Source: a virus
Strand: one strand, 5' to 3'
Length of the DNA stretch: 60,542 nucleotides
IMG/VR virus record: IMGVR_UViG_3300027721_000017
The notes beneath the pieces were generated by a model, which saw only the letters and a program-made list of their open reading frames with translations, was not told the DNA's origin and ran no database searches. The position numbers and the translations under genes are program-made. Below are positions 10,605 to 10,972 of the stretch, piece by piece. Every line of letters starts with the position of its first letter. The stretch's first letter is position 1.

Positions 10605-10972
10605 GGGGGTGACCCGGTTTCGACAGGGGCTACTGAAGATCAGAGGCGAGCAAGGGTTGGTCAGCAGGCCCTTTCAAAAGCCGACCAAGACTCAAAAGCC
10701 AACAGCGATGTTGAGCTCCCGGCGTGGATGATCGGTGCCTCGGCACCGGAATTCCGCGCCGCCGCGTAATAGCGGCAGGGACGTCTTCCAGCAAGATGCT
10801 CCGGTAACTGGAAGGCGCAACACAGGAGACCGCCGTACACAGGAAGCCGCCAGCCTGTCTCGGGGTAAATAGAAGAGCGGCAAACCGTTGGACCAGTCAG
10901 GGGATACTGACTACGCTCGTAGTATCTGGTCGTAGGTGTTTCTGGACGGGGGTTCGACTCCCCCCACCTCCA
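10605..10972 (+). ncRNA. ssrA: tmRNA-like (SsrA) gene, 368 nt
   Basis: The 5' end GGGGGTGACCCGGTTTCGACAGGGG resembles the GGGGCUGAACGGUUUCGAC 5' end of actinobacterial tmRNAs, as recalled. The 3' end is GGACGGGGGTTCGACTCCCCC followed by CACCTCC + A. The acceptor GGGGGUG/CACCUCC gives 7/7 pairs with one G-U. Internal tag frame GCC AAC AGC GAT ... GCC GCC GCG TAA TAG (10698-10772, ANSDVELPAWMIGASAPEFRAAA) begins 94 nt from the 5' end and ends in a double stop. CCA is not encoded. Confidence 0.7.

Follow-up and report, generated by a model that had tools for sequence, protein, structure and literature searches.

A complete phage-encoded tmRNA gene with a lineage-specific lengthened tag in an uncultivated clade of large phages

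Results

A full-length one-piece tmRNA gene on viral DNA

The window analysed in this work is a stretch of viral DNA of 60,542 nucleotides (nt; IMG/VR record IMGVR_UViG_3300027721_000017), and the subject of this report is the gene for a transfer-messenger RNA (tmRNA, ssrA) that it carries. The gene was called by ARAGORN at 10605-10972, and the Rfam tmRNA family RF00023 matched 10605-10975 with 115 bits (gathering score 47; E 3e-44) over the whole model (positions 1-374 of 374). The score thus exceeds the threshold by a factor of 2.4, and the agreement of the two methods is far above chance. The tmRNA identity put forward in an initial annotation, which had been made from the letters alone, is borne out by these matches, and its landmarks are in place. 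The 5' end GGGGGTGACCCGGTTTCGACAGGGG is present at 10605 and the T-arm GGGGG-TTCGACT-CCCCC at 10948-10964, and the acceptor strands GGGGGUG and CACCUCC pair at 7/7 positions, one of the pairs being the G3:U70 wobble. G3:U70 is the identity pair for alanyl-tRNA synthetase (AlaRS). The 3' CCA is not encoded in the gene, where CCTCCA is followed by TTC, and the discriminator is A10972. Apart from the PK2-PK4 region, which varies and is not essential in many lineages, all the testable defining features of RF00023 are found in the window RNA, and 10605-10972 is a full-length, structurally intact one-piece tmRNA. The gene and the elements of its RNA, including pseudoknots PK1 to PK4 and the reading frame of the tag, are as follows.

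10605..10972, plus strand, tmRNA (ssrA) gene, mature 5' end through discriminator A (ARAGORN and Rfam RF00023)
10605..10611, plus strand, acceptor stem 5' strand GGGGGUG, pairing with 10965-10971 (CACCUCC), G3:U70 included
10624..10651, plus strand, helix 2, 5' strand, in segments 10624-29, 10630-33, 10638-43 and 10646-51, with its partner at 10915-10944 (Rfam alignment)
10652..10688, plus strand, pseudoknot PK1, stem 1 AAGGG 10652-56 / CCCUU 10669-73
10689..10697, plus strand, A-rich 9-nt spacer GACUCAAAA, separating PK1 from the resume codon (8-13 nt in all relatives)
10698..10772, plus strand, tag reading frame, GCC at 10698, 23 codons encoding ANSDVELPAWMIGASAPEFRAAA, then TAA TAG at 10767-10772
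10733..10748, plus strand, GC-rich hairpin CGGUGC-CUCG-GCACCG inside the tag frame, within a lineage-specific insertion
10761..10776, plus strand, helix 5, GCCGC / GCGGC, stop codons located in the loop (Rfam alignment)
10782..10828, plus strand, PK2, stem 1 10782-91 / 10808-17 (10 bp), proposed stem 2 CUCC 10799-802 / GGAG 10825-28
10839..10881, plus strand, proposed PK3, stem 1 ACAGG 10839-43 / CCUGU 10854-58, stem 2 GCCGC 10846-50 / GCGGC 10877-81
10895..10912, plus strand, PK4 region, hairpin only (AGUCAG / CUGACU)
10948..10964, plus strand, T-arm GGGGG-UUCGACU-CCCCC (sequence)

The tmRNA fold is under structural selection

To describe the fold we used an explicit model of 88 pairs, which comprises the acceptor, the T-arm, four helix-2 segments, PK1, the in-tag hairpin, helix 5, PK2, PK3 and the PK4 hairpin. 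In a gapless alignment of the window tmRNA with those of two related viral loci, L191 and L193 (L-numbers are labels of comparison loci or contigs, of which L014-L133 are cellular, and L001-L013 and the loci of the clade viral), 98.9% of the cells were paired, with 7 compensatory pairs against 0 in six slid controls. When a further locus, L187, was added (four sequences, 87-93% identity), 98.3% of the cells were paired and the compensatory pairs rose to 11, against 0-1 in the slid controls. They fall in PK1 stem 1 (3), PK2 stem 1 (2) and the PK4 hairpin (2), with one each in helix 5, the T-arm, helix segment 2c and the in-tag hairpin. The tmRNA is under structural (purifying) selection, as follows from the excess of these changes over the controls.

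The acceptor stem forms 7/7 pairs in all four close sequences and covaries in more distant ones with G3:U70 kept, pairs 4-6 changing to give GGGGACG/CGUCUCC in L136 and GGGCCUG/CAGGUCC in L134. Helix 2 has 22 pairs in its four segments, with the one compensatory pair in segment 2c, several one-sided changes and a weak segment, 2b, that is 75% paired. The change in helix 5 is from C-G to U-A, and in the T-arm, all of whose pairs form in the four-sequence alignment, one pair occurs as G-C, C-G and A-U. In PK2 the proposed stem 2 is invariant in the lineage, its counterpart in L136 being CUCG/CGAG by our reading of the alignment; in PK3 every pair forms in the four sequences, with a single one-sided change only.

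The folding of PK1, which the initial annotation had singled out for scrutiny, is well supported. It folds directly 5' of the resume codon and covaries among the orthologs, and its stem 2, formed by UUGGUCAGC (10657-65) and GCCGACCAA (10680-88), contains a single A.C mismatch. An independent pseudoknot search found PK1 in 12/12 viral tmRNAs with differing stem sequences, for example AAGGG/CCCUU, CGAGG/CCUCG and CGAGUG/CACUCG in stem 1, and UUGGUC/GACCAA, GGUCAC/GUGACC and GCUUU/AGAGC in stem 2. The minimum free energy fold of the tmRNA alone (z = -3.3) was dropped as a model because it mis-pairs the pseudoknot regions.

These results bear on whether the gene might be a pseudogene in decay, or an ssrA fragment of the attP type devoid of trans-translation function. 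Fragments of the ssrA 3' end are frequent in temperate phages (PMC9004378, PMC3203893), and the gene has been lost in one related contig, L135. Such decay is nevertheless highly improbable, given that the gene is full length over all 374 model positions, that its helices are preserved by the 11 compensatory changes, and that divergent orthologs have kept the frame, G3:U70 and the placement of the stop in the helix-5 loop.

The resume codon lies at position 10698

The GCC resume codon that had been placed 94 nt into the gene by the initial annotation is upheld, gene position 94 being window position 10698, and the intact tag frame that it described is present with its TAA TAG double stop. In the Rfam alignment, the consensus resume GCA falls on 10698. 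Moreover, the resume codon lies 8-13 nt 3' of PK1 in all 12 refolded viral tmRNAs, and among ~100 tmRNAs that bear this PK1 motif, the distance from the motif to the opening of a plausible tag is 7-13 nt. The bases immediately 5' of the resume codon are those that contact SmpB (PMC8012679). A frame of 23 codons is also found in L191, L193, L187 and L251.

For the window, ARAGORN itself reported a different tag, which starts at a GCC 18 nt upstream (10680) from which the frame is likewise open, and which adds ADQDSK to the 23-aa peptide to give 29 aa (ADQDSKANSDVELPAWMIGASAPEFRAAA). We regard this start as very unlikely. The segment 10680-10688 (GCCGACCAA) is the 3' strand of PK1 stem 2 and pairs with UUGGUCAGC, and Rfam puts the consensus resume codon on 10698. 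The orthologs in L136, L134, L173 and L181 have no matching upstream GCN and all resume at GCC AAC preceded by AAAA; furthermore, ARAGORN takes position 94 in L191 and L193. Multiple lines of evidence favour 10698, and therefore the tag is ANSDVELPAWMIGASAPEFRAAA, ending at the UAA UAG in the helix-5 loop.

ARAGORN proved unreliable on these phage tmRNAs. In addition to the wrong resume codon in the window, it gave a spurious tag for L134 (ATHEQTRRGFSAR) and missed the tmRNAs of L001, L181 and L187. RF00023 detects that of L001 at 109 bits, and those of L187 and L181 were recognised via 87% identity to the window tmRNA and manual parsing. Such tag errors and misses matter for surveys of phage tmRNAs that rely on this program.

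The gene belongs to a syntenic locus of large phages

The attribution of the gene to a phage in the initial annotation agrees with the gene context and with synteny. The window encodes RIIA (36688-38826), RIIB, an ATP-dependent DNA ligase, two helicases and a polynucleotide kinase (PNK), together with several HNH endonucleases, a DenV-like glycosylase and an M15 endolysin. It has nine tRNA genes in two clusters, and its GC content is even, at 57-63%. Among the 56 open reading frames (ORFs) scanned in the 60 kb, none was found to encode an integrase, SmpB, a CCA-adding enzyme or a Clp component. The features downstream of the tmRNA are as follows.

11146..12668, plus strand, tRNA cluster, with tRNA-Met 11146-11219, tRNA-Ser 12272-12357, tRNA-Gln 12366-12439 and tRNA-Ala 12595-12668
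11221..11733, plus strand, HNH (HNH_3) endonuclease ORF between tRNA-Met and tRNA-Ser

A search with a neighbouring gene of 894 aa, which encodes a homolog of the eukaryotic major vault protein (MVP), returned proteins of 75-82% identity on three IMG/VR contigs, L134-L136, which measure 168-190 kb. In L136 and L134 (188-190 kb) the tmRNA is syntenic and is followed by tRNA-Met, Ser, Gln and Ala, and the MVP-like gene is shared. Further orthologs came from a scan of metagenomes, with the conserved hairpin upstream of the tmRNA (described below) as the query, and from a viral scan. They include those of L191 and L193 (91-93% identity to the window tmRNA), L187 (87%) and L251 (78%; a viral contig of 197 kb), and the scans also yielded L175, L165/174/198, L173/183 and L181. 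The tmRNA locus is syntenic in relatives on viral contigs of 168-209 kb. L135 has lost the tmRNA, tRNA-Met and the HNH ORF together, through one deletion of ~1.7 kb (L135 7791-7938), which indicates that the tmRNA belongs to a variable cassette within the clade.

No close relative was found among 50,697 deposited phage genomes. A megablast comparison of 20 kb of the window with the INPHARED phages gave no match, and sensitive blastn of the tmRNA against the 50,697 records returned only a 66-nt 3' match, in three unannotated 'Listeria phage' records. By tblastn, RIIA is at most 37% identical to its counterparts in isolates, which come from many host genera. The window phage belongs to an uncultivated clade of ~170-200 kb.

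The same context decides whether this could be a cellular ssrA gene, either on bacterial DNA or as a host gene flanking an integrated prophage. Genes for tmRNA are common sites of prophage integration (PMC3203893), and one of the comparison contigs, L214, has exactly such an arrangement, with an integrase adjoining a canonical tmRNA. For the window this reading is effectively refuted: there is no integrase among the scanned ORFs, phage ORFs and phage tRNAs flank the tmRNA, in surroundings that include genes for RIIA/RIIB, ligase, PNK, HNH and endolysin, several viral contigs of 168-209 kb show the same synteny, and the GC content is uniform.

The identity of the host was approached through the tmRNA 5' and 3' domains, and this route was rejected since the tmRNAs of Planctomycetota and Anaeromyxobacter are all ~75% identical to that of the window and provide no discrimination. 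Weak hints point toward Myxococcota. Anaeromyxobacter-like ANEPM tags occur in related viral contigs, and the tag ANDNVELALAA of L214 is one that we take to be a Myxococcus tag, of which a literature search found no occurrence. The PK1 motif TTGGTCAGCAGGCC..GCCGACCA was rejected as a signature of the phage family, as a genome scan found it to be widespread in bacteria.

A shorter tag has been expanded in this lineage

The tags encoded by the window and its relatives are listed here.

Window, ANSDVELPAWMIGASAPEFRAAA, 23 aa
L251, ANDNVELPAWMIGASAPEFRAAA, 23 aa
L191 and L193, ANDNVELPAWMIGAVAPEFRAAA, 23 aa
L187, ANSDVELPAWMIGAVAPGLRAAA, 23 aa
L173 and L183, ANDNVELYDAPALRAA, 16 aa
L136, L175 and L134, ANDNVDFPQYALRAA, 15 aa
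L165, L174 and L198, ANDNVESAPMLRAA, 14 aa
L181, ANDNVEFVPMLAAA, 14 aa
L011 (a more distant relative, which also has an MVP-like gene), ANQPMVNEFRAAA, 13 aa

Tags of the sister lineages have 13-16 aa and follow the pattern ANDNV[E/D]...RAA, and the 23-aa tag is kept in five independent assemblies (the window, L191, L193, L187 and L251). The tmRNAs of L136 and L134 are 86% identical, and their tags differ by 2 synonymous changes only. In L165 the first six codons show 4 synonymous and 0 non-synonymous changes relative to the others, and the replacements between the window and L136 tags are conservative (S/D, D/N, E/D, L/F and W/Y). Within the long-tag lineage, the variable codons divide into 5 synonymous and 5 non-synonymous. 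Overall, the orthologs indicate that the tag peptide is under selection as well as the RNA fold.

The stem of the hairpin inside the long tag is either invariant or compensated, a U-A pair being replaced by C-G in L187 through two changes that are both synonymous, and its loop is variable (CUCG, UGUC, AGUU and UUCG). The idea that this hairpin is a repeated mobile element was rejected, as it occurs once in the window.

Insight into the origin of these tags comes from L214, a contig of 66% GC in which the tmRNA adjoins a phage-type integrase and encodes the tag ANDNVELALAA. This is probably a cellular gene in a prophage-in-ssrA arrangement. Its first seven tag codons have the same nucleotides as those of L251, and in the tRNA-like domain and helix 2 its identity with L251 and L173 is 73-91%. 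Because of these resemblances, the phage tags of the clade appear to be expansions of the canonical cellular tag, and the source of the tmRNA would be a cellular gene encoding ANDNVELALAA. The window tag is a shorter ANDNVE...AA tag expanded by ~7-12 codons, depending on the relative used for comparison, and the conserved hairpin lies in the added part.

The tmRNA of L251 (731-1101, minus strand) is a mosaic. Between the window and L251, identity is 86% in the module containing the tag and PK2-4, as against 54% in the 5' domain and 75% in the 3' domain, and the 5' domain of L251 (tRNA-like, helix 2 and PK1) is nearer to that of L214 (73%). This distribution of identities implies recombination between tmRNA genes. 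The relatives provide a clear evolutionary series leading from the canonical cellular tag to progressively longer phage tags, and a source of constructs with which to ask whether the degradation signal is tuned by phages.

Tag endings and the possible fate of tagged proteins

The initial annotation regarded the tag as long and unusual, and as atypical on the grounds that canonical tags end in ALAA. The second point is overstated, as the tag ends in Ala-Ala (...RAAA). As to the first, a length of 23 aa is within the documented range of 8-35 aa (PMC8012679), and what stands is the lineage-specific expansion, which is conserved.

Of the tags of cellular tmRNAs that share the PK1 motif, 88/89 are 8-12 aa long and end in LAA or MAA. 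On viral contigs such endings were found in 3/19 distinct tags from ~12 lineages, with lengths of 9-37 aa; those of L001 (37 aa, ...FAYA) and L013 (28 aa, ...RALA) are examples. Since the sample is non-independent and was ascertained via one PK1 motif plus synteny, the difference between viral and cellular endings is a lead rather than a result. The sole non-canonical cellular tag, ANEPMQQLAVA, comes from L067 (CAZOOK010000036.1, a 54.8 kb contig of a 'Salinisphaerales' metagenome-assembled genome). It equals the viral tag of L010, and L067 is probably a phage contig that was binned into this assembly.

The suggestion of the initial annotation that the tag might redirect the trans-translation output of the host is speculative. 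On this reading the expanded tag might itself be adaptive, such that rescued polypeptides meet a different fate, for example through altered SspB/ClpXP kinetics or another protease. The phage would then keep ribosome rescue while altering what becomes of the tagged proteins. All 8 distinct tags of the group (7 from the syntenic clade plus that of L011) have 2-12 residues beyond ANDNVELALAA, and 7/8 have Arg at position -3 or -4. The long form is conserved over five assemblies, one of them with a mosaic tmRNA, and the cellular and viral proportions of LAA/MAA endings given above point in the same direction, as does the tag of phage G, AKLNITNNELQVA, whose ending is also non-canonical (PMC12484599). 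We nevertheless consider adaptation of this kind rather unlikely. The terminal Ala-Ala-COO-, which is the main determinant for ClpX, is still there, and in E. coli a change of the antepenultimate Leu raises KM only modestly (PMC7652416). The viral tags are subject to the ascertainment just described. Moreover, canonical ...YALAA tags occur on other viral contigs, and the middle of the long tag has equal numbers of non-synonymous and synonymous changes. The wider proposal that virus-borne tmRNAs systematically carry adaptively remodelled tags, longer and without [L/M]AA, that alter the fate or kinetics of tagged proteins is more doubtful still. In this clade a tag of the cellular ANDNVELALAA type would have gained 3-12 residues repeatedly, with an Arg near the C-terminus in most lineages, and the 23-aa form with its hairpin would have been maintained while recombination exchanged the tRNA-like and PK1 domains.

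A structured leader upstream of the tmRNA

The tmRNA is preceded by a second conserved RNA element.

10495..10600, plus strand, structured non-coding leader of ~105 nt, between the stop of the ORF at 10082-10495 and the tmRNA, 4 nt from the tmRNA

In the window copy it contains the hairpins GGGC/GUCC (loop CAGCCA), CGGC-GAAA-GCUG, CGUG-GCAA-CACG and GCG-GAAA-CGC, three of which have GNRA loops, and it ends in a hairpin, GGCCGCC-CUUCAACAA-GGCGGC, that is nearly invariant including its loop. AGCC/GGCU is a candidate pseudoknot. The leader shows 5 compensatory pairs and is present as one copy per genome in 13 related loci, with an additional 3' fragment at the edge of L173; a comparison with Rfam gave no match. 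Its presence in L135, which is without the tmRNA, and its absence from L251, which has one, argue that its link is with the locus and not with the tmRNA as such. Possible roles are those of a riboswitch-like leader, an element of a 3' untranslated region or a small RNA. The possibility that the conserved sequence is the C-terminus of a gene was rejected, the open frames being inconsistent and of 7-159 aa.

With the leader-motif model, weak matches (15 bits, E 0.14) were obtained at L272 6646-6740 and L280 6420-6514, both on the minus strand. They have GGUGAAGC, GCAGGC and compatible small hairpins without the terminal hairpin, and may be distant relatives or chance. In the leader pattern, the gap minimum was one base too large for sequences of the window type, and the scan returned mainly chance matches.

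Other features of the window

The MVP homolog is encoded at 13002-15686 (plus strand, 894 aa) and matches the Pfam families MVP_shoulder (1e-22), Vault_3 and Vault repeat, as well as MVP chains in the PDB (E 8e-25, residues 518-854). Conserved copies of the gene are present in L134-L137, L011 and L173. Reports of viral MVPs are limited to one 2023 preprint, and bacterial homologs have been reported from Myxococcales, Cytophagales and Oscillatoriales, the first of which may be taken as another weak hint of a host in Myxococcota.

Between the HNH ORF and tRNA-Ser, a segment of 24 nt (11829-11852) shares 75% identity with the 5' portion of tRNA-Ser (12281-12304) and may be a degraded tRNA remnant. 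A further tRNA gene at 33616-33688 (plus strand, 73 nt, anticodon UCA) is labelled tRNA-SeC(tca) by ARAGORN. It is too short for a tRNA-Sec and is therefore a putative opal suppressor. TGA is the commonest stop among the window ORFs (48/82), and the tag stop UAA UAG is not readable by a tRNA with the anticodon UCA. Readthrough induced by such a suppressor would create a greater need of ribosome rescue, which makes a functional link to the tmRNA possible.

Discussion

We conclude that the window very probably encodes a functional one-piece tmRNA of a large lytic-type phage, the genome of which is probably ~170-200 kb. By analogy with known trans-translation (PMC8012679), the RNA would be made together with the neighbouring phage tRNAs, and host enzymes would process the transcript and add the CCA end. 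Host AlaRS would charge it with alanine via G3:U70, and SmpB and EF-Tu would bring it to stalled ribosomes whose mRNAs are broken or non-stop. Translation would then resume at the GCC at 10698, add (A)ANSDVELPAWMIGASAPEFRAAA and end at the UAA UAG in the helix-5 loop. The ribosome would be released, and the tagged fragment, ending in Ala-Ala-COO-, would most likely still be a protease substrate. For the phage, the likely benefit is rescue and the maintenance of the ribosome pool in infection, while host transcripts are destroyed and expression of host ssrA may cease. Maintenance of the ribosome pool is the usual explanation offered for phage tmRNAs.

Several observations weigh against this conclusion. 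At the level of structure, stem 2 of PK2 and the whole of PK3 form in all the sequences with hardly any variation and are proposals of the model, and a second PK4 stem was looked for in a region where the Rfam alignment is poor and was not found. Selection on the middle of the long tag appears only moderate, as judged by the even split of its variable codons. A scan for sigma-70 promoters and intrinsic terminators around the tmRNA gave nothing above chance, and no promoter-like site was found upstream of it. No gene for SmpB, a CCA-adding enzyme or a Clp component was found among the scanned ORFs of the 60 kb, so function depends on compatible host factors. Finally, to judge from L135, the tmRNA is dispensable in at least one lineage.

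It has also to be considered whether the phage tmRNA might act mainly as a replacement or decoy when RNA-targeting defences of the host attack host tmRNA or tRNAs. The location in a tRNA cluster and the presence of phage PNK and ligase fit a theme of RNA repair and replacement, and it has been proposed that tRNA-targeting defences are evaded by means of phage tRNAs (PMC10264068). On the other hand, no known nuclease targets tmRNA in such a context, and we consider this role improbable as the principal one. It is compatible with ribosome rescue and not exclusive of it.

The view in the initial annotation that large phages occasionally carry tmRNAs is supported by precedents (PMC9004378, PMC7162821). 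A tmRNA is present in ~2.3% of sequenced phages (PMC9004378), and tmRNAs are also found in huge phages (PMC7162821). In its architecture the window RNA resembles bacterial one-piece tmRNA (RF00023; E. coli SsrA, tag ANDENYALAA). Both have a tRNA-like domain with G3:U70, helix 2, PK1 situated 8-13 nt 5' of a GCN resume codon, a stop in the helix-5 loop and, in the window partly as a proposal of the model, a downstream pseudoknot region, and the window tag likewise starts AN(D/S).. and ends in Ala-Ala. In contrast to E. coli SsrA, the window tmRNA is phage-encoded, has no encoded CCA and has PK4 reduced to a hairpin. Its tag has 23 aa as opposed to ~10, with Arg at -4 and Ala in place of Leu at -3, and an extra hairpin lies inside the tag ORF.

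Like the tmRNAs of Bxz1/cluster C mycobacteriophages, Streptomyces phages, phage G, Caulobacter phiCbK-like phages and huge phages (PMC9004378 Table S1, PMC7162821, PMC12484599), it is a complete gene in a large genome. Such genes typically lie beside tRNA genes, as here, and their function is inferred. A non-canonical tag ending is shared with phage G (AKLNITNNELQVA; PMC12484599). It differs in that it has no nucleotide similarity to any tmRNA in the 50,697 deposited records beyond the 66-nt 3' 'Listeria phage' match, and in its origin from an uncultivated clade, the RIIA of which does not exceed 37% identity with any isolate's.

In the OM43 phage Melnitz, too, the tmRNA is accompanied by a structured RNA element (PMC9004378). 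However, the tmRNA of Melnitz is a two-piece form with a glutamine riboswitch, whereas that of the window is one-piece and its leader matches no Rfam family. The leader is, moreover, also present in L135 without a tmRNA, so any regulatory link to the tmRNA is conjectural. The attP fragments of the ssrA 3' end in cluster K1 mycobacteriophages (PMC3203893) resemble the window gene in being tmRNA-derived sequences in phage genomes. They are 3' cores of at least ~24 nt by an integrase, whereas the window gene is complete and conserved, with no integrase among the scanned ORFs.

Phage tmRNAs are thus already known, and the sole unusual feature of the window gene is the lineage-specific lengthening of the tag. 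The expanded tag, the hairpin inside its ORF and the mosaic history are modest variations on a known class. Phage tmRNAs have been catalogued, with their function inferred in the reports cited here, and the window adds a well-supported example from an uncultivated clade together with informative orthologs.

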